A stretch of 63,955 nucleotides of DNA, counting the filler. It is 8 parts of 8 records of this genome, joined end to end, with 100 filler letters (N's around TTAATTAATTAA, not from the genome) between each part and the next. Parts side by side here need not be neighbours in the genome. Positions count along the whole stretch, not along the records: positions 21,023 to 30,118 come from SRR31147125_14425; 7 more parts are not named here. One strand, 5' to 3'. A program made the translations under genes and the position numbers. Within the stretch, counting starts at the first letter, position 1; each line of letters starts with the position of its first letter. Positions 5,705 through 53,033 of the stretch are shown in pieces. The notes under the pieces are model-generated. The model had not been told where the DNA came from and searched no databases. It worked only from the letters and a program-made list of their open reading frames with translations.

Positions 5705-5804
5705 NNNNNNNNNNNNNNNNNNNNNNNNNNNNNNNNNNNNNNNNNNNNTTAATTAATTAANNNNNNNNNNNNNNNNNNNNNNNNNNNNNNNNNNNNNNNN
5801 NNNN
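5705..5804. other. Artificial contig linker
   Basis: N44-TTAATTAATTAA-N44 (stops in all six frames). Confidence 0.99.
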
Positions 5805-11879: not shown

Positions 11880-11979
11880 NNNNNNNNNNNNNNNNNNNNN
11901 NNNNNNNNNNNNNNNNNNNNNNNTTAATTAATTAANNNNNNNNNNNNNNNNNNNNNNNNNNNNNNNNNNNNNNNNNNNN
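11880..11979. other. Artificial contig linker
   Basis: N44-TTAATTAATTAA-N44. Confidence 0.99.
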
Positions 11980-20922: not shown

Positions 20923-21022
20923 NNNNNNNNNNNNNNNNNNNNNNNNNNNNNNNNNNNNNNNNNNNNTTAATTAATTAANNNNNNNNNNNNNNNNNNNNNN
21001 NNNNNNNNNNNNNNNNNNNNNN
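20923..21022. other. Artificial contig linker
   Basis: N44-TTAATTAATTAA-N44. Confidence 0.99.
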
Positions 21023-21023
21023 C

Positions 21024-21488
21024 TGCCCCGAAATGATAATGGGAGTTGGCTCTGTTATTGACGAAGCCACAGCAGCTATGTACATTGCTTTAGGAACCAA
21101 CTTTATTGTGGCTCCTTTAGTAGACGAGGCAACAGCAAAAGTTTGTAACAAACGCAAAATTGCATGGAGCCCCGGTTGTGGCTCGGTAACAGAAATTGGA
21201 AAAGCGCACGAACTGGGTGCTGAAGTTGTTAAAATTTTCCCCGGCTCGCAAGTGGGTGGACCAGCATTTGTAAAGGGAGTAAAAGGACCAATGCCTTGGG
21301 CCAGTATAATGCCAACTGGTGGTGTTTCGCCAACCGAAGACAATCTGAAAGGATGGTTTGACGCAGGAGTAACCTGTGTTGGAATGGGCTCGCAGTTGTT
21401 CCCAAAAGATGTTCTTGCTGAAAAAAATTACAGCTACATTACTGATAAATGTGCAGAGGCAATGGCTATAATCAAGAGTTTTCAATAA
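21024..21488 (+). CDS. eda: KDPG/KHG aldolase, 5' truncated
   Basis: GVGSV.D, PGCGSVTEI, VKIFP, MPTGGV and WF.AG..CVG.GS motifs. Confidence 0.9.
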   Translation, partial: CPEMIMGVGSVIDEATAAMYIALGTNFIVAPLVDEATAKVCNKRKIAWSPGCGSVTEIGKAHELGAEVVKIFPGSQVGGPAFVKGVKGPMPWASIMPTGGVSPTEDNLKGWFDAGVTCVGMGSQLFPKDVLAEKNYSYITDKCAEAMAIIKSFQ

Positions 21489-21517
21489 AATCAAATAAAT
21501 TCTAAATCAATAATTTT

Positions 21518-22843
21518 ATGTCAGAAATTCAAAAACCAGCAGGGAGGTATCGTTTTAGGGTACTGGCCTTGTTATTTGCTGCAACTTCAATCAACTATTT
21601 CGATAGGAGCTTGATGGGTGTAATGTCGCCTGAACTTATCGAATGGTTTGGTTGGACGAAACAAGATTATTCAAATATTCTAATTGCCTTCCAAATTGCT
21701 TATGCAATCGGACTACTTTCCATGGGAGGAATCATTGACCGCTTAGGAACAAAAAAAGGTTATATCCTTTCTATTGGGCTGTGGAGTGTTTTCGGAATGC
21801 TGCACGCAACAATTGGAAAAGGCTTTAGCTTAATCGGTTTTATGATGGCACGATTTGGACTTGGTTATGGCGAGTCGGGTAACTTTCCGGCTGCGATTAA
21901 AACCACTGCCGAATGGTTCCCTAAAAAAGAACGTGCTTTTGCCACAGGTATTTTTAATGCTGCAACAAGTGTAGGTGCTATTGCAGCACCATTTGTTATT
22001 GGCGCTATTGTATACTGGACTGGTGGCGAACGAGGTCAGGGAGAGCTGGTAAACTGGCGTATCCCATTTTTAATTACTGGTGTTTTAAGTGCAATTTGGG
22101 TGTTTTTGTGGTGGACTACTTATAAAAAACCTGAAAACCATAAAAAAATATCGAAAGAGGAACTTGATTATATTAATAGTGACTCCGTTGTAGAAAGCGA
22201 CGAAAAACTTCCATGGAAAAAAGTATTTCCAAAACGTCAAACATGGGCTTTCTCTTTAGCAAAAGTTACTGATGCTGTGTGGTGGTTCTACCTTTTCTGG
22301 GGAGCTATTTTCCTTGCCGATAAGTTTGGAGTTGATATTAAACATATGGGACTACCATTTTTGGTTATTTATTTAATTGCCGATAGTGGAAGTATTTTTG
22401 GCGGTTGGCTTTCAGGAGCTTTAATCAAAAAAGGATGGTCGATTAACAAAGCACGTAAACTAACTTTATTAATTTGTGCTTTGGTTATTTTACCTGTATG
22501 TTACGTTGCTATCACCGATAACCAATGGTTGGCAATTTTCTTAATTGGTTTAGGAGCTGCCGGTCACCAGGCTTGGTCTGCTAATATTTTCACTTTGGCA
22601 TCTGACGTATTTCCGAAAAAAGCAACTGCCTCGGTTGTTGGTATTGGTGGAATGGTAGGAGCCGTAGCTGGTATTATTAGTAATATTATTCTTGGTGCAG
22701 TACTCGATGATGCCAATTCAACAGGTTTCTTCTGGGCATTTTTAGTAGCAGGTTCTTGTTATGTGATTATTTTAGGTTTAGTACATTTAATTATGCCTAA
22801 AATGACACCGCTGGATGAGAATTTGGAATTAGTTGCAGAATAG
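21518..22843 (+). CDS. MFS hexuronate transporter (ExuT-like)
   Basis: INYFDR, ESGNFPAAIK..AEWFP.KERA.ATGIFN, WWFYLFW and AAGHQAWSAN motifs. Lies next to eda. Confidence 0.88.
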   Translation: MSEIQKPAGRYRFRVLALLFAATSINYFDRSLMGVMSPELIEWFGWTKQDYSNILIAFQIAYAIGLLSMGGIIDRLGTKKGYILSIGLWSVFGMLHATIGKGFSLIGFMMARFGLGYGESGNFPAAIKTTAEWFPKKERAFATGIFNAATSVGAIAAPFVIGAIVYWTGGERGQGELVNWRIPFLITGVLSAIWVFLWWTTYKKPENHKKISKEELDYINSDSVVESDEKLPWKKVFPKRQTWAFSLAKVTDAVWWFYLFWGAIFLADKFGVDIKHMGLPFLVIYLIADSGSIFGGWLSGALIKKGWSINKARKLTLLICALVILPVCYVAITDNQWLAIFLIGLGAAGHQAWSANIFTLASDVFPKKATASVVGIGGMVGAVAGIISNIILGAVLDDANSTGFFWAFLVAGSCYVIILGLVHLIMPKMTPLDENLELVAE

Positions 22844-22864
22844 TTTCGAAATTAATTTATATAG

Positions 22865-22897
22865 AAAGGCTTTTCGTATCTGCGGAAAGCCTTTTTT
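22865..22897 (+). terminator. Intrinsic terminator
   Basis: AAAGGCTTTTCG...CGGAAAGCCTTTTTT. Confidence 0.8.
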
Positions 22898-22911
22898 CAT
22901 TTTTACCTGAT

Positions 22912-23367
22912 ATGAAAATTTTCGTTTTCGACCTTGACTTTACCATCTGGGATGCCGGCGGAACCTGGTGCGATGCTACAAATCCTCCTTATTATTGGAA
23001 AGAAGGCAGTTTGCTCGATCAGTCGGGCAGCGAAATGCAGCTTTATCCCGACGTGCCATATATTCTGGAGAAGCTGAAACAAGACGGAAAGAAAATTGTT
23101 GCTGCTTCACGAACTTTCGAACCAAGCTGGGCACAAGACCTTATTCATTTATTCGATATTGATAAATATTTCGACTTAAAAGAAATATACCCCAGCAGCA
23201 AAGTGGCACACTTCAAAAAGATTCAAAATCATTTTAAACTTCCTTACTCCGACATAGTGTTTTTCGACGATGAATACCGAAATATTGATGAAGTTGGCAA
23301 ACTTGGAGTAGAATCGGTTTTGGTTCAAAACGGATTAAATTTTAAAATGGTGTCGGATTATCTTTAA
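22912..23367 (+). CDS. Magnesium-dependent phosphatase-1 (HAD IIIC) family
   Basis: VFDLDFTIW, ASRT, EIYP..K..HF and FFDDE.RNI motifs. Confidence 0.85.
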   Translation: MKIFVFDLDFTIWDAGGTWCDATNPPYYWKEGSLLDQSGSEMQLYPDVPYILEKLKQDGKKIVAASRTFEPSWAQDLIHLFDIDKYFDLKEIYPSSKVAHFKKIQNHFKLPYSDIVFFDDEYRNIDEVGKLGVESVLVQNGLNFKMVSDYL

Positions 23368-23399
23368 TCCAACAAATATTTTTACTTCCCAACCCAAAT

Positions 23400-23426
23400 T
23401 GCAACAATATTTCAGTATTTTGAAAC
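23400..23426 (+). promoter_or_regulatory. Candidate AraC-type operator, copy 1
   Basis: TGCAACAATATTTCAGTATTTTGAAAC, 21/27 identical to 25261-25287, with half-sites 21 bp apart. Confidence 0.6.
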
Positions 23427-23525
23427 ATTGAATAGCTCCTGTTATTCCTTTTTTACGGATATTTATAGAGCAAAATAGGAATAACTTTTGCCGTTATCTG
23501 AAATCAATAACTTTTAACCTGAACT

Positions 23526-25259
23526 ATGAATACTGTTCCGTCGATGGAAAAACGTTTTCTGGAAAAATTTATCGAAATTATGGAAGATAATTTTGCTAAC
23601 GACCAGTTTCAGGTTAACGATTTGGCTGCTGAGATGGGAATGAGCCGGGCCACACTTCATCGAAAAGTTAAAGCTGCTACAGGTAAAACAATTAGCCAGG
23701 TTATTAACGAAGTACGTTTAAAAGCAGCAAAAGAATTGCTTATAAATCGCTCGGGAACTGTTTCGGAAGTAGCTTTCATGGTTGGTTTTGGAAGTTCAAC
23801 CTATTTTATCAAATGTTTTCGCGATTTCTATGGGATTCCTCCCGGTGAAGTATTAAAAGAAAATTTTCAGATCATTGAATTTGATGCTCAAAAGTCAGAA
23901 TCACCTAAAATAAAGTCGAAATACAAGTTTGTGTTATTGCCCGTTATGGTAGTTGTTATTGCCGTAATTTTATATGCCATACTATTTAACAATTCTGAAA
24001 ATAAAATTGAAACTCCACCTCCTTCAACTAAAAATAAGGCTGCCTTAAATCTTTATTTGCAAGGATTGAAATTGCTGGATGTTTATTCCGGAAGTCAAAA
24101 AGAAGAGCATTTTATGGAAGCTAAAATTAAATACGAGCAAGCCATTAAACTCGATTCTGCTTTTGGCGATGCATATACCCGGCTGGCTGGTATCTATTTG
24201 TCGCATATTCCTTATTCTGAAAAAACAAATCGTGGTTTTGATTATAGCGATTCGGCCATGATTTATATTGAAAAGGCAGAGCATTTTGGAGTGGGAGACA
24301 AGGATTTTCTATTAAGAATGAAGTCTGTTTATTATCAACGCAGGCAAAATTTTCAGAAGGCATTGGTAATTTTCGAACAACGTTGGGAGCATCGGGAAAA
24401 AGATTATCAATATCATTACGAACGTGGAAATCATGGTTTTTTTATGCGCGAATATGACGTGACAATTAAGCACCTGCTGAAGTATTTGGAAATGAAACCA
24501 AAAAATGAAATGCCTGAATACGACAGACTTTTTAAGCTGGCAATGGTTTTTTCGAATGCTGGTTTTGCTGAAGAGTCGATGGAATTTGCTTATCGGCAGT
24601 TTCAACTTATAAACGATACTTTAAAATATAAAGGTTGGTATCCGCATGTTATTTATAATTGTGGTTTACTCGAAAAGGTAATGTTGTATTACGAAGAATC
24701 ATACCGAAAACAAGAGATTGGTACAACCGTATACAATAAATTGTTGGAAATGTATTTACTCACTAACCAAAACGAAAAAGGATTAAAACTCCTTCCGGAA
24801 TGTGTTGAATACAATAAAAAAGTTTCGTCGGGTATTTTACCAAACTACATAGTTGGTTATTACCATTGGTTAAAGAACGATGTAGAACTGGCAAATACTC
24901 ATTTTACTAGTGAAATTAGACGTTGGGAGTATTTTTGTGAATTGAATAACTCACCTGAAACGAAAATAAACTACCTGAGAATTGCTGCTTGTTATGCTAT
25001 GCTTAACAAAAAGGAAGATGCAATAAACAGTCTTAAAAAGTTGAGTGAAATAAAATCTGTTCCATATTTGGTGGTTTTAAAACTTCAGAAATTACCAATG
25101 TTTGATAATCTTAGAGGCGAGCCGGCTTTTGAGGAAATTACAACAGAAATAGAAAATAAACACCGCGAAGAACATCTACGCATAAAACAATCTATTAAAA
25201 ACAGTCCGTTCGAAATAAACTATACTAAAAATGGTACAGTTTCTATCTCAGGTACCTAA
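23526..25259 (+). CDS. Membrane-spanning AraC-family regulator (N-terminal HTH, TM, periplasmic TPR region)
   Basis: LA.EMGMSR.TLHRK, RL..A.ELL, VSEVAF.VGFGS.TYF.KCF..FYG..P, one TM, TPR helices ending P.FD.LR.EP.F. Confidence 0.85.
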   Translation: MNTVPSMEKRFLEKFIEIMEDNFANDQFQVNDLAAEMGMSRATLHRKVKAATGKTISQVINEVRLKAAKELLINRSGTVSEVAFMVGFGSSTYFIKCFRDFYGIPPGEVLKENFQIIEFDAQKSESPKIKSKYKFVLLPVMVVVIAVILYAILFNNSENKIETPPPSTKNKAALNLYLQGLKLLDVYSGSQKEEHFMEAKIKYEQAIKLDSAFGDAYTRLAGIYLSHIPYSEKTNRGFDYSDSAMIYIEKAEHFGVGDKDFLLRMKSVYYQRRQNFQKALVIFEQRWEHREKDYQYHYERGNHGFFMREYDVTIKHLLKYLEMKPKNEMPEYDRLFKLAMVFSNAGFAEESMEFAYRQFQLINDTLKYKGWYPHVIYNCGLLEKVMLYYEESYRKQEIGTTVYNKLLEMYLLTNQNEKGLKLLPECVEYNKKVSSGILPNYIVGYYHWLKNDVELANTHFTSEIRRWEYFCELNNSPETKINYLRIAACYAMLNKKEDAINSLKKLSEIKSVPYLVVLKLQKLPMFDNLRGEPAFEEITTEIENKHREEHLRIKQSIKNSPFEINYTKNGTVSISGT

Positions 25260-25260
25260 T

Positions 25261-25287
25261 TGATACAAAATTTCAGCTATTTGAAAC
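25261..25287 (+). promoter_or_regulatory. Candidate AraC-type operator, copy 2
   Basis: TGATACAAAATTTCAGCTATTTGAAAC, starting 58 bp before a GAACTTTG -7-like element. Confidence 0.6.
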
Positions 25288-25355
25288 GACGTTTATATGG
25301 TTGTATTTCATTTTAACAGAACTTTGAATTGTTGTTTCATTAAATACAAAAGGTT

Positions 25356-27776
25356 ATGAAAAAGCTAATTCTTCTTGTATGTATTTCTTCAATATTTAGT
25401 TTGAGTTGTTTGGCTCAGAAAATTGAAAAAACTGCTGCAAATAATAAAACAGTAGAGTTCCATAAACTATATTTACACACCGACCGTGAGTTTTTTTTTG
25501 AGGGCGATACATTATGGTTTGCTGCTTATTTGTTGAATGGCCAAACGCATTTACCTGTTGAAGAGAAATGTAATCTATCCGTTGATATTATTAATGAAGA
25601 CGGAGAAGTTGTTCAAAACAACCTTTACCTTGTTTTTAATGGCAGCTGTTCTGGTAATTTAAGTTTAGACATACAAAATATACCGGAAGGAAAATATTTG
25701 CTTAGAGCGTATACCGATTATCTTAAAAATTTTGGAACAGATGCCTTTTTTACAAAAAACATTCGTGTGTCTTCTGTGAAAAATTCATTCGAACCGGAAG
25801 TAGATAAAAGTAAAGATGGAACACGAGAAGGACAAAAATTAGATGTTCAGTTTTTGCCTGAAGGAGGCTTTCTTCTTTCTGGAAAATCGAATTGTGTGGC
25901 TTTTAAGGTTTTAAATGAAAAAGGAAAGGGAGTAGAAATATCAGGCAAACTTTTTGATTCTCAAAATAATGAAGTTCTAAAATTTCAGTCGATTTATAAA
26001 GGTGCCGGAAAATTCTATTTTATTCCTAAAGCAGGTGAAAAGTATTCTGTTAAAATTGACGGACGCGATAAATCAACAATAAAACTTCCTGAAGCAAGAA
26101 ACACAGGAGCACTGATAAAACTGATTGCACAAAGTGAGCGGGCGGTTAGTTTTATGATTCAGAAACAAGGAATGTCCTCGAAACTCCCATTGAAAATGGC
26201 ATGTATAAGCAGGGGAGAATCGCTTTTTATTATTGATGTTGATACGGAGAAAATTAACGCTGTTTTGAGCATTGGAGCCGAAAAGCTTAGAAACGGAATT
26301 AACCGTTTTGTTCTCTACGATAATCAAATGAATCCACTATCTGAACGCCTAATATTTCAGAATAAGGTAGAAATAAACAAACTTAAAGTACGGATTGGCG
26401 ATGATTCTTACGGTAAGCGAGAGGAGGTTCAGCTAAACATTTCACCATCTGCATTAAATCGTAACGAAACAGCTTTGGTTTCGGTGGCAGTAGTCGATGA
26501 AAATTATGTGAATGCCAGCGGGATATCTGAAAATATAGCATCTTATCTTTTGCTTAATTCCGAATTAAAAGGAAATGTTGAATCTCCGGCAAATTATTTT
26601 ATTGAAGACAAAAACTTAAACTCTCAAACCAAGTTAGATTTGCTAATGTGTACAAATGGTTGGAGTAATTATCAGTGGAATTATTTGTTTCCTACCGATG
26701 TAAATTTCGATTATAAACCCATGTTTGGCTTCGATTTTTCGGGTAAAGTAAAAAAAGCAATAGGTAAGAAAGGTGTAGATGATGGAAATGTATTTTTTAT
26801 GGTGAAAAGCAAAGAACGTACTCAGTTTCTCGATTTGCCCTTAAATATCGACGGAAGTTTCGCATTCGAGGAAATTGTATTTTTCGATTCTGCCTCGGTA
26901 TTTGCCCAGGGAAGAAATAAACGCGATAAAAATACAATTAAGTTCGATATGACTTTCCCGGATATTGCACCTTTTGAAGTTGATAAAAATAGTTTGCAAC
27001 TGTTTCAAAACGATGTAAAAATACCCGTTTCGGTATATCGACAACACTATATAAATGAATTACGACGTAAAGAATTTTTTCCTGACAAGGAAAATATCTT
27101 ATTGGATGAAATTGAGGTGAAAAGAAAAAGTTATATTGAAAAGTGGAAAACCGGAAAAGAGAAGAAAGGAGATGGCCCATATTTGTTAACTACGATAAAA
27201 ACTGCCGGAAACACAAACATTATTGAATATTTGCAAACCAAAGTGCCGGGTGTTTGGCCAACTCGTGGAAGACAAAGCATTACCTTTTCGCCCGGAGCAG
27301 CAGCGAATTTAGAATCGATGGATCCTGAACCACTGTTTTGGATTGATTATCATTTGAAACTTACTGTCGATGAAATCAGAAACTATTCAATTGATATATT
27401 TGAAACAATAGAGTTGATTTCTCCTCCGGCATCCTATTTTTATCGTGCGCCTAATGGAGCGGTGCTACTAACTACCAAAACCGGAAAATTGCACGATAAA
27501 AGAAACGCTGTTTTATTAGGCGGAGCGGTTAAAGTAATGAATGGTTTTACAAAAGTACGTGAGTTCTATTCTCCTAAATATTCTGCGGAAAATTTAGACT
27601 CTGAAATTCCTGATTACAGAAATACATTGTATTGGAATCCTGCCTTAATTCTTTCCGGAGAACAAAATGTATTTTTTCATGCTTGTGACAATGTATCCCA
27701 TTACCGGGTTTTTGTTGAAGGTATTACTGAAACCGGTAAAATATGTATTGGCGAAGCTGAGTTTGTTGTTGAATAA
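25356..27776 (+). CDS. Bacteroidota MG2/macroglobulin-like protein with a TonB-plug-like C-terminal region
   Basis: KLYLHTDR..F..GDTLWFAAY, LRAYT, VQFLPEGG, SERLIF, YLLL.SELKG.VE.P..Y, LDLLM.T.GW and REFYSP.Y...PDYRNTLYWNP motifs. Confidence 0.8.
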   Translation: MKKLILLVCISSIFSLSCLAQKIEKTAANNKTVEFHKLYLHTDREFFFEGDTLWFAAYLLNGQTHLPVEEKCNLSVDIINEDGEVVQNNLYLVFNGSCSGNLSLDIQNIPEGKYLLRAYTDYLKNFGTDAFFTKNIRVSSVKNSFEPEVDKSKDGTREGQKLDVQFLPEGGFLLSGKSNCVAFKVLNEKGKGVEISGKLFDSQNNEVLKFQSIYKGAGKFYFIPKAGEKYSVKIDGRDKSTIKLPEARNTGALIKLIAQSERAVSFMIQKQGMSSKLPLKMACISRGESLFIIDVDTEKINAVLSIGAEKLRNGINRFVLYDNQMNPLSERLIFQNKVEINKLKVRIGDDSYGKREEVQLNISPSALNRNETALVSVAVVDENYVNASGISENIASYLLLNSELKGNVESPANYFIEDKNLNSQTKLDLLMCTNGWSNYQWNYLFPTDVNFDYKPMFGFDFSGKVKKAIGKKGVDDGNVFFMVKSKERTQFLDLPLNIDGSFAFEEIVFFDSASVFAQGRNKRDKNTIKFDMTFPDIAPFEVDKNSLQLFQNDVKIPVSVYRQHYINELRRKEFFPDKENILLDEIEVKRKSYIEKWKTGKEKKGDGPYLLTTIKTAGNTNIIEYLQTKVPGVWPTRGRQSITFSPGAAANLESMDPEPLFWIDYHLKLTVDEIRNYSIDIFETIELISPPASYFYRAPNGAVLLTTKTGKLHDKRNAVLLGGAVKVMNGFTKVREFYSPKYSAENLDSEIPDYRNTLYWNPALILSGEQNVFFHACDNVSHYRVFVEGITETGKICIGEAEFVVE

Positions 27777-27784
27777 TATCGGAA

Positions 27785-29500
27785 ATGGCTATATATGTTT
27801 TTCATAAAAGACTGGTTTTGCTGTTGTTCCTGTTTATAGCTGCTTTTACAGGAAATGCAACTATTCATAAAAACACTAACATAAAACAGGTTGTTTATAG
27901 TCAGGTTATTAACAATAGAACAACTTCGTTTAATGTTACTTGCAATCAAGATTCAGCAGAAGTCTGTCAGAGGACAGACTTATCTGCTGTTTCTAAAAAA
28001 TTATTTCTTTCAAATTTCAGGGCAAGTGAGCCAAACGAAATTAGAGGTAAAGTTTTAAATAAAAATGGAATTGGAATTGAATATGCGACCCTGTATAATC
28101 TAAATAGAAAAACATCGTGTATTACCAACCCAAAAGGGGAGTTTAAAATTGAGGGTAAAATTGGAGATGTACTTGAAATTCGTCATTTAAATTATATCAC
28201 AAAAGAAGTAGAGGTTTTATTTGAAATTTGTGAATTTGTTTTAACCGAAAAGCTTTACAAACTGGCAGAAGTTGTTGTTTCGCCAAAGGCTGCTTTCGAT
28301 TTGTTTAACACCGCTTGTACAAATACCTTATTTACATTTAAAGAAGATAATTTGTCGAGGGCTTATTGCCGGGTAACACGAAAAACCAACAAATACATTG
28401 CACAAACCGTCGATTTAGATTTAGACATTTATCAGAAGAAATATAAAAGTTTTGGAAGAGGAGAACAAGTTAAAGTATTCAAAGTGCAGGAACGGATAGA
28501 AAAAACAGGAACCTCAATATATGGAATTCCCGAAATGCAACTCACTTTTTTTTATCCTCAAATTCAGGAAATATATTGGGTTGAATTGCCCAATAAGTTT
28601 AACTATTTCAAAATCGACGAGGAGGATTTTATCCGCTTACAACTGATAAATAAAAAAGATTATCCTTATCTCGTTAGAATCGAAGTATTGATTAACCGAA
28701 AAGATTCAACACTTCATTCGTTTGCCATGGACAAAAGAAACCTTACCACTTTTTCGATAAGTTCTGCGGGTATTATAAAACGAAATCTTGCTGAGTTTGA
28801 CGATTATCTCCTGGAAAAAACAAATCATTTTATTTTGTATGAATATAAAAATGGTTTCGGCTATTTATCGGAATATTATCAGGATGTAACCATCGCAGAA
28901 AATAAAATAAGGGAAAACAAGATTGAACTCAGACAGCACCTTAGAACGTACAATAACGGTAATGAAAAACCAGAACGACGAAGGGGCCGACGAAGAATAT
29001 TTGAGAACTCATATAATCCGTTGAAAACAATAAACAGGTACAATACTGAATTTTGGAAGGATTACAGCTTAATGAATTTTACTTATGATTTTGAGAACTT
29101 AATGGATACGAAGGGAAATATCGACCAAAAAGTTCTGGTTGCTTCAACTGATAGTGTTGATGCCCCTGACGCAATTGAGATTAAAAAGGAGAGCGTTAAT
29201 GTTTCAAGGTACGAAATGGAAAACAAGACTGAAACACTTTTAGAAATAGCACAAAAATTTAAGATAAGCACCGACGATATTTTGTTTGTACCCTATTACA
29301 TAGAGGATGACCGTCCAGTGTTTTCTGAAAAAAAGTATGGCATTCAAGACATGCTTCTTAATATTGAATCTCCTGAAATTTTAAATAATATAATGCAGGT
29401 ATTTTACTCCAATAAACCGCTGGTGAGGACAAACTATGGCTGCACGAATTTTACTTGCACCAAAGATTTAAAGGCCTGGTATTTCCTTTTTTTAATGTAA
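27785..29500 (+). CDS. Exported protein with a carboxypeptidase-regulatory-like domain
   Basis: Signal peptide, G.V....G..IEYAT, TN..GEF, L.EVVV and Y..EFW.DY motifs. Confidence 0.7.
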   Translation: MAIYVFHKRLVLLLFLFIAAFTGNATIHKNTNIKQVVYSQVINNRTTSFNVTCNQDSAEVCQRTDLSAVSKKLFLSNFRASEPNEIRGKVLNKNGIGIEYATLYNLNRKTSCITNPKGEFKIEGKIGDVLEIRHLNYITKEVEVLFEICEFVLTEKLYKLAEVVVSPKAAFDLFNTACTNTLFTFKEDNLSRAYCRVTRKTNKYIAQTVDLDLDIYQKKYKSFGRGEQVKVFKVQERIEKTGTSIYGIPEMQLTFFYPQIQEIYWVELPNKFNYFKIDEEDFIRLQLINKKDYPYLVRIEVLINRKDSTLHSFAMDKRNLTTFSISSAGIIKRNLAEFDDYLLEKTNHFILYEYKNGFGYLSEYYQDVTIAENKIRENKIELRQHLRTYNNGNEKPERRRGRRRIFENSYNPLKTINRYNTEFWKDYSLMNFTYDFENLMDTKGNIDQKVLVASTDSVDAPDAIEIKKESVNVSRYEMENKTETLLEIAQKFKISTDDILFVPYYIEDDRPVFSEKKYGIQDMLLNIESPEILNNIMQVFYSNKPLVRTNYGCTNFTCTKDLKAWYFLFLM

Positions 29501-29662
29501 GTGCCGATATTTTGGTTGAAGGATTTGCAGTTTATATAAAACACTAAAAAAGGAATTTAATAATTCTGTAAGTGTTTATGAAGTTGTAAGTCAGGTTGTT
29601 TGAGGGTGTTTTTCAGTTTTTTTTCTTCATTTGTTTTGAATTCTTATACTATGTTTGTATCA

Positions 29663-29773
29663 GAGAAAAGGCATAATTTTAGTTAGTTTAGTTAGAGCAT
29701 AGTTTTTCATAGGTTAGACATTAGAACTTAGAGGTTAGATGAAAAATCCCGGAAAGGACGCCGGGATTTTTTT
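29663..29773 (+). ncRNA. Candidate small RNA 1 (UAG-repeat rich)
   Basis: Bacteroidota -7 box TATGTTTG (29650-29657), then 10 TAG motifs in 29680-29738, then terminator AAAAATCCCGG-AAAGGACG-CCGGGATTTTTTT. No ORF. The 5' end is estimated. Confidence 0.62.
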
Positions 29774-29931
29774 ATGCCCTTTTCTCTCCCAAGTTTTTAT
29801 CGTTTAAAATAAAGTCGATTTCAAAAAAAAGACACGCTCAGAAAAATGGAAGTATCAAATCAGCACTTTTTACCTGTTAATTAGGTTTTTGGATTTGAAA
29901 TATTTTGCAGAAGCCACCTATATTTGTGACA

Positions 29932-30012
29932 TACAAAAAAGAATTAATTTTTTTGGTGATTAAAGAAAAGAGTTGTTAAGCAAAATCCCGGAGTGGACAC
30001 CGGGATTTTTTT
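29932..30012 (+). ncRNA. Candidate small RNA 2 (paralogous 3' hairpin)
   Basis: TTTG (29894-29897)-N21-TATATTTG (29919-29926) promoter, a short body, and terminator AAAATCCCGG-AGTGGACA-CCGGGATTTTTTT. The 5' end is estimated. Confidence 0.58.
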
Positions 30013-30048
30013 ATGCTCAATTTTTCGATTTCATTCAAATACCGGCAT

Positions 30049-30079
30049 AAAAAAAGTGCCGGCTATTTACCGACACTTT
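30049..30079 (-). terminator. Minus-strand intrinsic terminator (convergent transcript cut by the contig end)
   Basis: Reverse complement AAAGTGTCGG-TAAATAG-CCGGCACTTTTTTT followed by ATGCC. Confidence 0.7.
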
Positions 30080-30118
30080 CGAAAACTAAATAATTAAACA
30101 GCATTTATAGTTTTACAG

Positions 30119-30218
30119 NNNNNNNNNNNNNNNNNNNNNNNNNNNNNNNNNNNNNNNNNNNNTTAATTAATTAANNNNNNNNNNNNNNNNNNNNNNNNNN
30201 NNNNNNNNNNNNNNNNNN
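30119..30218. other. Artificial contig linker
   Basis: N44-TTAATTAATTAA-N44. Confidence 0.99.
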
Positions 30219-37839: not shown

Positions 37840-37939
37840 NNNNNNNNNNNNNNNNNNNNNNNNNNNNNNNNNNNNNNNNNNNNTTAATTAATTAANNNNN
37901 NNNNNNNNNNNNNNNNNNNNNNNNNNNNNNNNNNNNNNN
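37840..37939. other. Artificial contig linker
   Basis: N44-TTAATTAATTAA-N44. Confidence 0.99.
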
Positions 37940-41110: not shown

Positions 41111-41196
41111 TATTTAAATTGTCTAATATTGATAACGATAATATCTATATTTATTATATATAGTTTTAAATTTTAAAAGAATTGGAAGTGGAAAAA

Positions 41197-42578
41197 TTGA
41201 AAATTTTTAATACTCAAACGAGAAAAAAAGAAGAACTGAAAACTATTGAACCTAATAAAGTGAAAATATATGCATGTGGTCCTACTGTATATAATTTTTT
41301 TCATATAGGAAACGCAAGACCTTTTATAGTTTTTGATACATTAAGAAGATACCTGGAGTATGCAGGGTATGATGTGACATTTGTCCAAAACTTTACTGAT
41401 ATAGATGATAAGATGATCATTAATGCAAATGAAGAAGGAATAACAGTTAAGGAATTAGCAGAGAGGTTTATTGCAGAGTATTATAAAGATGCAAAAGCTT
41501 TGAATATTAAAGAGGCGCATATTCATCCAAAAGCTACAGAGCATATGGATGAAATTATAGATCTGATTAAAAAACTTGTGGATAATGGATATGCATACGA
41601 AGCTAATGGCGATGTGTATTTTGATACAGCAAAGTTTGAAGGCTACGGAAAGCTTTCTGGTCAATCGATTGATGACCTTGAATCGGGTTCTAGAGTTGAA
41701 GTAAATGATGTAAAGAAAAACCCAATTGATTTTGCTCTTTGGAAAGCAAAAAAAGAAGGTGAGCCTTTTTGGGAAAGTCCTTTTTCTGAAGGTAGACCAG
41801 GGTGGCATATTGAGTGTAGTGCTATGAGCATGAAGTATCTTGGCGAAACTATAGATATTCATGGTGGGGGTCAGGATTTGGTTTTCCCTCATCACGAAAA
41901 TGAAGTTGCTCAATCGGAAGGTGCAACTGGTAAGCCATTTTGTAACTATTGGATGCATAATGGATATATCAATATAGACAATAAAAAGATGTCGAAGTCG
42001 GCGGGTAACTTTTTTACCGTGCGTGATATTATAAAAGAAGTTGATCCTATTGCGGTAAGGTTGTTTATGCTTTCTTCTCACTATAGAAATCCAATTAACT
42101 TTTCTGAGGCGTTATTAACCCAAGCAGTTTCTGCGCTAGGAAGAATAAAGAACTTTTTGAAAACTTAGACTTTATCGTTGATAATGATAAGAATGTTGAT
42201 GGAGTTGGCATAGAAGAGATAAATACTGAATATAAGAATAAGTTTATAAAAGCAATGGATGATGACCTGAATACTGCCGATGCTATTGGCGTTGTTTTTG
42301 AATATATTAAAGATATTAACCAAAAGTTTGCGGATGGTGCAAATGCAGATGAAGCAAAAAAAGCAAAAGAGTTTGTAACTGAACTATTGGATGTATTGGG
42401 TTTGTACGCAGAGGAAAAATCTGATATTCCAGCAGAAGTTTTGGATTTGGTTGAACAAAGAAAAACTGCTCGCGCTGAGAAAAACTGGGCAAGAGCTGAT
42501 GAGATAAGAGATGAGCTAAAAGAGATGGGCTACGAGGTAAAAGACACAGCTGATGGTGCTAAAATTAGTAAGATATAA
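41197..42578 (+). CDS. cysS: Cysteine--tRNA ligase; one-base frameshift at T5 42154-42158
   Basis: [28 protein letters not shown] and KMSKS motifs. The second ORF supplies MDDDLNT and the anticodon domain (AD.IRDEL). Adding one T joins them. Confidence 0.95.
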
Positions 42579-43353: not shown

Positions 43354-44363
43354 TTGGAAAGAAATATATTAGCTATTGAAACATCTTGTGATGAAACTGC
43401 TGCTGCTATAGTTAGAAACGGCAGGGAAGTGTTATCCAATGAAATTTACTCCCAAATTGAAATTCATGCCGAATATGGAGGGGTTGTTCCTGAGATTGCA
43501 TCAAGGAATCATACTCAAAAGCTACCATATATCGTACAACAGGCAATCGATAACAGCGCGCTTACTATTGATGATATAACCGATATTGCAGTCACTAATG
43601 GTCCTGGTTTAGTTGGAGCACTATTAACAGGAGTTTCTTTTGCTAAGGCCTTTGCTTATGCTAATAAAAAACCACTAATTGCTGTTAATCATATCGAGGG
43701 GCATATATGCTCGAACTATATTAGTGATAAAGAGCTTAAACCGCCATTTATATGTTTGGTGGTTTCTGGCGGACATACGCATATAGTGAAAGTGGATAAT
43801 GATATGGGCTATACTCTTTTGGGTCAAACAAGAGATGATGCTGCTGGTGAGGCTTTTGACAAAGTAGCACGGGTAATTGGTCTTGCTTATCCTGGTGGAC
43901 CAAACTTAGAAAAGCTAGCAAAAGATGGCGATGAAGATAAGTATGTTTACCCAACTGCTTTTAAAAAGAAAACCATTTGGATTTTTCGTTTAGTGGCATT
44001 AAAACTGCTGTTATAAATCATTTACACAAGATGAACCAAGCTGGCGAACATTACAAAAAGGCAGATGTTGCTGCTAGTTTTCAAAAAAACTTAGTTAACA
44101 ATTTAGCTGATAATACATTTGAAGCTGTAAAAAGAGAAGGTTTTAATATGCTTTGTATTGCTGGAGGAGTTTCATCTAATAATTATTTGCGTGAAGAATT
44201 TACTAAGCGAGCAACGGAGTTGAGCGTTAGATTATGCTTGCCAGATAAAAGGTATTGCACTGATAATGCGGCGATGATTGCTAGTGCTGCTTATTTTAAA
44301 CCTGATAATATCGGTAGTTTAGATTTAAACGCTGTACCGACGATGAAGCTAGAGTTTAAATAA
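43354..44363 (+). CDS. tsaD: tRNA N6-threonylcarbamoyltransferase TsaD; one-base frameshift at A5 ~43963-43967
   Basis: [54 protein letters not shown] and CTDNAAMI motifs, split over two ORFs. Confidence 0.95.
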
Positions 44364-44388: not shown

Positions 44389-44488
44389 NNNNNNNNNNNN
44401 NNNNNNNNNNNNNNNNNNNNNNNNNNNNNNNNTTAATTAATTAANNNNNNNNNNNNNNNNNNNNNNNNNNNNNNNNNNNNNNNNNNNN
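44389..44488. other. Artificial contig linker
   Basis: N44-TTAATTAATTAA-N44. Confidence 0.99.
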
Positions 44489-52933: not shown

Positions 52934-53033
52934 NNNNNNNNNNNNNNNNNNNNNNNNNNNNNNNNNNNNNNNNNNNNTTAATTAATTAANNNNNNNNNNN
53001 NNNNNNNNNNNNNNNNNNNNNNNNNNNNNNNNN
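52934..53033. other. Artificial contig linker
   Basis: N44-TTAATTAATTAA-N44. Confidence 0.99.

Follow-up and report, generated by a model that had tools for sequence, protein, structure and literature searches.

A stretch of 59 nucleotides that carries ten TAG triplets and is set between a promoter-like box and an intrinsic terminator raises the question of whether a regulatory RNA is specified here and what its repeated motif would serve. An earlier note, made from the letters alone, interpreted the arrangement as a small RNA that titrates an RNA-binding protein in the manner of CsrB. The window, that is the whole stretch of DNA that was analysed, comprises 63,955 nucleotides including filler. 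The array with its flanking signals is referred to as unit 1, and a second, similar arrangement downstream as unit 2.

The contig and its putative host

The window consists of eight contig pieces that are joined by linkers of N44, an all-frame stop and N44, and the UAG array is located on piece 21023-30118, about 350 nt before the end of this 9,096-nt contig piece. The GC content of the pieces ranges from 30% to 40%. The other pieces contain flagellar genes (FliD, FlhB), a Firmicutes-like hprK-lgt-trxB-whiA cluster, Fibrobacter/T9SS-type domains and type IX secretion tails. Since the gene content differs between the pieces, the window may hold more than one organism, and window-wide statistics are to be taken with that caveat. 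On one of the other pieces (41182-42578 and 43354-44363), the cysS gene is split into two ORFs, which cover the catalytic domain and the DALR/anticodon-binding part, and tsaD is present in the same stretch as two overlapping ORFs; both are frameshifts, pseudogenes or assembly errors of that contig.

The genes upstream of the array are listed in the table. The last of them encodes a protein of 571 amino acids and ends with a stop codon at position 29500. Its product yielded only six relatives, the best with 59% identity across 66% of the length, and a weak CarboxypepD_reg-like match of 27.1 bits, which is below the Pfam cut-off of 32.2 bits; a match to HutP was not obtained for this protein. 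The preceding 806-aa protein has 818 relatives with at best 55% identity, and the named ones belong to Maribellus, Draconibacterium, Mariniphaga and Prolixibacteraceae and are often titled TonB-dependent receptor plug-domain proteins. For none of five neighbour proteins that were looked up was an exact match present in the protein collection. Judged from these proteins, the putative host of the contig is a poorly sampled, uncultured, marine-type and Marinilabiliales-like lineage of the Bacteroidota without close relatives in that collection, which makes it reasonable to apply the Bacteroidota promoter consensus. Since the neighbour proteins have no relative with more than 59% identity, informative orthologous loci may be few.

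Table. Coordinates of the linkers, genes, candidate signals and repeats discussed in the text, counted along the window.
Feature	Position	Strand	Remarks
N-linkers	5705-5804, 11880-11979, 20923-21022, 30119-30218, 37840-37939, 44389-44488, 52934-53033		N runs
Genes 5' of the array		+ (all)	KDPG-aldolase fragment, MFS sugar-acid transporter, HAD acid phosphatase
Genes 5' of the array, continued		+	577-aa AraC-type regulator, 806-aa protein, 571-aa protein
Candidate -33-like TTTG elements	29630-29633, 29635-29638	+	two, overlapping; 16 and 11 nt 5' of the -7 box; putative role
-7 box of unit 1, TATGTTTG	29650-29657	+	fits the Bacteroidota sigma-A consensus TAnnTTTG
Predicted RNA 5' end, unit 1	29662..29676	+	coincides with the left inverted-repeat arm
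Array of ten UAG triplets	29680..29738	+	C-poor, mostly unpaired body
Sub-array 1	29678-29695		TTTAGTTAG twice, 100% identical; perfect 9-nt tandem duplication
Sub-array 2	29698-29712		CATAG twice, 10 nt apart
Sub-array 3	29714-29741		TTAGANN four times, period 7
Intrinsic terminator, unit 1	29742-29773	+	11-bp stem 29742-29752 / 29761-29771, 8-nt loop
Inverted repeat, 15/16 nt	29662-29676 and 29772-29787		brackets array and terminator; one arm with one inserted base
Unit 2	29919..30016	+	239 nt downstream of unit 1
Box of unit 2, TATATTTG	29919-29926	+	predicted +1 at 29931
Terminator of unit 2	29982-30012	+	stem and trailing ATGC identical to those of unit 1
Third hairpin, CCGGCA / TGCCGG	30042..30063	-	from the fold of 30010-30118

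The UAG array and its flanking signals

The -7 box and the ten TAG triplets are present as the earlier note had read them, with the triplets at positions 29680, 29684, 29689, 29693, 29700, 29710, 29715, 29722, 29729 and 29736, eight in the context TTAG and two in the context CATAG; in the RNA most of them would read UUAG followed by A or U. The triplets are separated by spacers of 1, 2, 1, 4, 7, 2, 4, 4 and 4 nt and can be divided into three sub-arrays, and TRF reported two short tandem arrays with repeat periods of 7 and 9 nt. In the period-7 sub-array TTAGA is constant in all four copies and the spacer dinucleotides CA, AC and GG are each different, so that the constraint looks to fall on the TTAGA motif rather than on the repeat unit (P ~0.01 as a post-hoc estimate).

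Counting on both strands of the window yielded 35 segments of 59 nt with at least seven TAG triplets, every one of which starts between 29659 and 29693. The highest count per 59 nt elsewhere was five, as determined on both strands of 322,280 bases from the 121 loci among the matches listed by the contig scan described below. Mononucleotide shuffling of the 59-mer never produced ten TAG triplets in 200,000 attempts (the highest count was eight), and ten were reached by 23 of 20,000 shuffles that preserved the dinucleotides; all ten TA dinucleotides of the 59-mer are followed by G. Eight copies of the tetramer TTAG fall within 60 nt, whereas the runner-up 4-mer cluster of the window has six copies, and no 4-mer exceeded four copies in 159 sixty-mers located 5' of comparable terminators among the matches listed. 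The density of TAG is above chance and above the local base composition, and the motif array is non-random.

Short motif runs were also noticed at other loci. In Flexithrix dorotheae (L083, 265-300), TTTTAG, ATTAG, GTTAG and GTTAG are located in a 3' UTR immediately 5' of the same terminator core; among the loci listed this is the sole terminator-upstream region with five TAGs and, as the best of about 159, it may be due to chance. In Pedobacter sp. Leaf194 (L013, 1925-1975), an ffh-like gene has about six copies of TAAAG in its 3' UTR, just 5' of a similar terminator hairpin. Five TAGs with an exact 7-nt period were detected within a 255-aa minus-strand ORF of a Candidatus Andersenbacteria MAG (L069, 3038-3068), which shows that periodic TAG runs can arise within coding DNA.

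The description of the body as C-poor, unlikely to fold and devoid of coding potential was borne out. It contains 4 C in 59 nt, and its fold in isolation yielded a z-score of +0.97, with 169 of 200 shuffles folding as well or better. Within the whole RNA the mean unpaired probability of the body is 0.54, compared with 0.43 +/- 0.06 for 200 body shuffles, of which 1% reach 0.54. An ORF of at least 30 amino acids overlapping 29548-29992 was found on neither strand, and the array body is non-coding. A 22-codon frame from the ATG at 29739 was rejected: it crosses the terminator, the corresponding frame of unit 2 lacks a start codon, and each of the two differences in the loop alters a residue. Reading TAG as Q provided just one 76-codon stop-to-stop frame, which spans the terminator and was likewise rejected.

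On the two strands of the 9,096-nt contig together there are ten matches to the consensus TAnnTTTG, and only two of them are intergenic (987 intergenic bases), namely the boxes 5' of unit 1 and unit 2. The sigma-A box TAnnTTTG of Flavobacterium psychrophilum is located at -12 to -5 (PMC9723704), and by analogy with this placement the +1 of unit 1 is predicted at 29662. The predicted RNA would accordingly extend over about 112 nt, from about 29662 to the U-tract at 29767-29773. The strong terminator named in the earlier note is indeed present, with seven T at the latter positions and a stem in which five G-C pairs are lengthened by A-U pairs; the hairpin appears in the MFE and in the centroid structures. 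An A-run on the opposite side makes the terminator usable both ways. Since no terminator was predicted from the stop codon at 29500 to the hairpin at 29742, the mRNA of the upstream 571-aa gene probably also reads through the array.

Unit 2 has a body of about 50 nt that is A/U-rich, contains UUAA motifs and lacks TAG. A TTTG is located 11 nt 5' of its box, as in unit 1, and another one at 21 nt. The last ~48 nt of both units are 81% identical, with a weak alignment beyond, and none of the six aligned TAGs is kept in unit 2, their counterparts being TAA, TGG, TAA, AAG, GTT and a gap. Two box-terminator units are thereby present within 620 nt. In other genomes, a TAnnTTTG box 40-140 nt 5' of the hairpin was detected for 5 of 158 terminators with the same core among the matches listed, and one of these five belongs to a tRNA gene, which represents a natural positive control. 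At 11 Bacteroidales or Marinilabiliales-type loci among the matches listed, the hairpin ends protein genes and is not preceded by TAnnTTTG within 200 nt. The rarity of boxes at like terminators (5/158) and their presence 5' of both units favours the prediction of two genuine small transcription units.

The inverted repeat encloses the array together with its terminator. Its right arm is located just 3' of the U-tract and would be contained in the RNA only upon read-through. A fold that includes both arms gave a z-score of -3.53, with equally good folding in 2 of 200 shuffles. A further copy of the arm was not detected in the window (one match, the arm itself, with 2.0 expected by chance at that stringency). 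The inverted repeat could provide pairing in a read-through RNA, act as a backup terminator or mark the border of an invertible or mobile segment. Past unit 2, the third hairpin may terminate a convergent gene on the minus strand that would lie outside the contig, which ends at 30118; this reading argues against a plus-strand gene downstream.

Several searches were directed at relatives of unit 1. The earlier note had proposed an Infernal search of Rfam, which gave no family match for the unit: at the gathering score the window contains a tRNA elsewhere only, and a relaxed search (E up to 10) added 39 sub-threshold matches that are driven by the terminator, headed by a minus-strand match to BSnc120 with 28.9 versus 114 bits. 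Genome contigs were scanned with the terminator core and a free loop, which corresponds to a generic hairpin of many phyla; at least 121 loci were obtained, and neither the host genome nor its kin were among those listed. The blastn comparison of 29500-30118 with the loci listed provided matches of 31-41 nt only, nearly all on terminator cores, and no relative extending past the hairpin. Neither the plasmid nor the phage collection gave a match to 29501-30118 in the distant mode of blastn, and no other copy of the UAG unit is present within the 64-kb window. A Bacteroidota MAG (L086) carries the box TATCTTTG 100 nt 5' of a terminator and possibly represents another small-RNA-like unit; common to it and the UAG unit is the generic hairpin alone.

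Two further RNA classes were considered and rejected. Retron ncRNAs are marked by a reverse-transcriptase gene and a long msd-type hairpin, and neither was found here. ToxI-like antitoxins consist of tandem repeats of about 36 nt, followed by a terminator and then a toxin ORF; the periods of 7 and 9 nt are too short for a type III antitoxin, and there is no ORF 3' of the terminator.

Explanations for the array

The most likely single mechanism, put forward tentatively, is that unit 1 specifies an independent sRNA of about 112 nt in which the UAG array would act as a multivalent protein-binding platform. The contig's last gene would then be followed by two tandem small non-coding RNA genes, each transcribed independently, with the array belonging to the first. 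Transcription from about 29662 to the U-tract would yield an RNA with an unstructured, C-poor portion in its first two thirds. The ten UAGs within this portion would form a landing site for a single-strand RNA-binding protein that might bind as an oligomer or in several copies. Such an RNA would keep the protein off its mRNA targets, combining the logic of CsrB/RsmZ with a motif type known from TRAP and HutP sites. The anatomy and the non-random array are observed, and transcription, protein binding and sequestration are inferred. The multivalent platform is preferred because the motif is extremely dense and stays constant while its spacers vary freely, because the body is unstructured, and because a C-poor repeat is ill suited to base pairing. 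Counted against it are the perfect 9-nt tandem duplication, which slippage alone can make, the absence of all six aligned TAGs from the paralogous unit 2, the failure to find a related unit in the window and among the loci listed, which had been collected with a generic hairpin, the 5' half of the array, which fits no known ring geometry, and the chance run of five period-7 TAGs in the coding region of L069. In addition, an RRM, HutP, TRAP, CsrA or Hfq domain was not detected in any of the 59 ORFs on the 64 kb of mixed contigs. Of the earlier sponge-sRNA interpretation, the anatomy of an independent small unit is supported by the sequence, whereas for the putative decoy function neither a related unit nor a candidate binding protein was found in the sequences covered. 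Two rival readings carry a weight nearly equal to that of the multivalent platform.

According to the first of these, which is possible but somewhat doubtful, unit 1 is a genuine sRNA that works through base pairing, as GibS and FopS do, with the UUAG repeats serving as seeds against CUAA-containing sites or being slippage filler. The promoter-box/terminator anatomy is equally accounted for by this explanation, and the Bacteroidota sRNAs GibS, FopS and Rfp18 pair via a seed or stem-loop region. Moreover, unit 2 has the same 3' end without UAGs, as expected of sibling sRNAs with different seeds. The C-poor repeat is, however, a poor pairer, and its best duplex reached -25.2 kcal/mol, whereas the best duplexes of 50 shuffled sRNAs were stronger on average (-31.1 +/- 3.1); as this search covered 80-nt translation-start regions of the 59 ORFs on 64 kb of mixed contigs and skipped regions holding N, it represents weak evidence.

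The second reading, about as doubtful as the first, dispenses with a function: the array would be part of a long 3' UTR of the upstream 571-aa gene that ends at the terminator, its TAG-rich sequence would be a decayed local tandem duplication and the boxes would be due to chance. It draws on the expected run of the upstream mRNA into the array, on the two short tandem arrays reported by TRF, on the perfect 9-nt duplication and on the TAG-free paralogue, and plain 3' UTRs with motif repeats at similar terminators do exist (Pedobacter with six TAAAG, Flexithrix with four TTAG). It leaves unexplained, however, an extreme density (eight copies of one 4-mer against the maximum of four in 159 sixty-mers among the matches listed), the combination of a constant motif with varying spacers, and two box-terminator units in 620 nt when the base rate is 5/158 among the matches listed.

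A more specific form of the protein-binding reading, which we regard as rather unlikely, is a trans-acting decoy for an oligomeric reader of spaced UAGs, either TRAP/HutP-like or an RRM-1 assembly, that is possibly switched by inversion.

The remaining two explanations are both improbable. As a cis-acting attenuator, the array would let a UAG reader of the TRAP or HutP type control termination at 29742-29773 and hence downstream expression. The position of the array directly 5' of the terminator and the HutP-like 4-nt spacers in four UAGs fit such a function, but the only features downstream are unit 2 and the hairpin that resembles a minus-strand terminator, with no ORF among them. An antiterminator is impossible because the C-poor body is unable to pair with the terminator stem. 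In addition, there is no second XAG site past the 5' stem arm, unlike in hut, only two of nine spacers are of the TRAP type, and neither hutP nor mtrB is located nearby. Equally improbable is a DNA-level element, that is a 126-bp module between the inverted repeats which is either invertible, so that one orientation sets the array between promoter and terminator, or miniature and mobile: the repeat encloses exactly the array with its terminator, the predicted +1 coincides with the start of the left arm and promoter inversions are known in Bacteroides (PMC4747536), but the arms differ by one inserted base, lack a flanking direct repeat and are neither copied elsewhere in the window nor present at unit 2, and the contig encodes no recombinase or transposase.

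The choice between these explanations bears on how regulation in this phylum is viewed. Much of the physiology of Bacteroidota is regulated after transcription and, to our knowledge, these bacteria have neither the classical RNA chaperones nor the sponge RNAs that go with them. If the decoy reading were true, unit 1 would represent a dedicated multi-motif protein-sponge sRNA of the CsrB style in a phylum without CsrA, Hfq and ProQ. If the array titrates a protein, it would reveal the recognition motif of an unrecognised global regulator and provide a simple bait for it, with wild-type and UAG-mutant RNA to be compared. If the array is slippage filler, the locus would be an unremarkable 3' region that happens to contain a peculiar repeat and would caution that very non-random arrays can arise without function in A/T-rich 3' regions.

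Comparison with known RNA-based systems

UAG-core recognition by RRM proteins, on which the sponge interpretation had drawn, is known from eukaryotic proteins. The statement of the earlier note that Bacteroidota largely lack Hfq and CsrA but have RRM proteins holds: Bacteroides are described as being without Hfq, ProQ and CsrA, and RRM-1 proteins as widespread in the phylum (PMC13370968, PMC11697453). The closest known binders of UAG repeats, TRAP and HutP, had not been considered in that note, nor had unit 2 and the bracketing inverted repeat. A limited literature survey provided neither a UAG-motif sRNA nor a HutP relative for Bacteroidota.

We know of no TRAP protein outside the Firmicutes. 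Its RNA targets, such as the trp leader of Bacillus, contain 11 G/UAG triplets with spacers of 2-3 nt that are wound round an 11-mer ring (PMC3913778). Unit 1 resembles them in its similar number of consecutive UAG-type triplets (ten, against nine to eleven for TRAP-regulated RNAs), which are carried by unstructured RNA for what would be one oligomeric reader. Spacers of 2-3 nt are needed by TRAP, whereas only two of the nine spacers fit here; moreover, TRAP sites act in cis, within leaders that contain an antiterminator, whereas the folds of unit 1 contain no alternative pairing between body and terminator.

HutP, whose sites are located in the hut terminator of Bacillus, contacts three XAG per hexamer face with a 7-nt period, and its two sites are 12-17 nt apart and flank a G-C stem (PMC2425495). 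Similar to this arrangement, the UAGs at 29715, 29722, 29729 and 29736 follow a 7-nt period beside a G-C-rich terminator stem. The pattern TAGN4TAGN4TAG matches twice within 29715-29738, as it does in 3 of 100 shuffles of the window, and the weight of this HutP-like match is modest. In contrast to HutP sites, which flank the stem, all motifs are located 5' of the stem here, without an XAG run after 29752, and neither a hutP gene before unit 1 nor hut genes after it were found.

FopS sRNAs have a canonical promoter and combine a single-stranded 5' stretch with a terminator hairpin; they are multicopy and paralogous (PMC11697453). The RRM-1 protein RbpB binds single-stranded parts of these sRNAs, and the passages describing this interaction report no UAG preference (PMC11697453). 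Unit 1 is like FopS and GibS in its promoter box of the Bacteroidota type, its predicted single-stranded 5' region and its terminator hairpin, and this likeness is one of architecture only and not of homology. The FopS model RF04319 reached 17.1 bits, where the gathering score is 56, an R1 seed was not found in unit 1, and FopS belongs to Bacteroidaceae whereas the contig is Marinilabiliales-like. With invertible segments of Bacteroidota, unit 1 shares flanking inverted repeats, here with arms of 15/16 nt.

No Csr/Rsm family was matched in the window at the gathering score, nor by any of the 39 weaker matches (E up to 10). Unit 1 is a member of none of the CsrB/Rsm, TRAP, HutP and FopS groups, because the defining tests of all four were negative. 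The motif of CsrB, RsmY and RsmZ is GGA in hairpin loops, whereas here UAG is placed on an unpaired strand and 29662-29741 contains no GGA; what unit 1 would share with these RNAs is the design of a small non-coding RNA with many copies of a short motif that could hold several copies of one protein.
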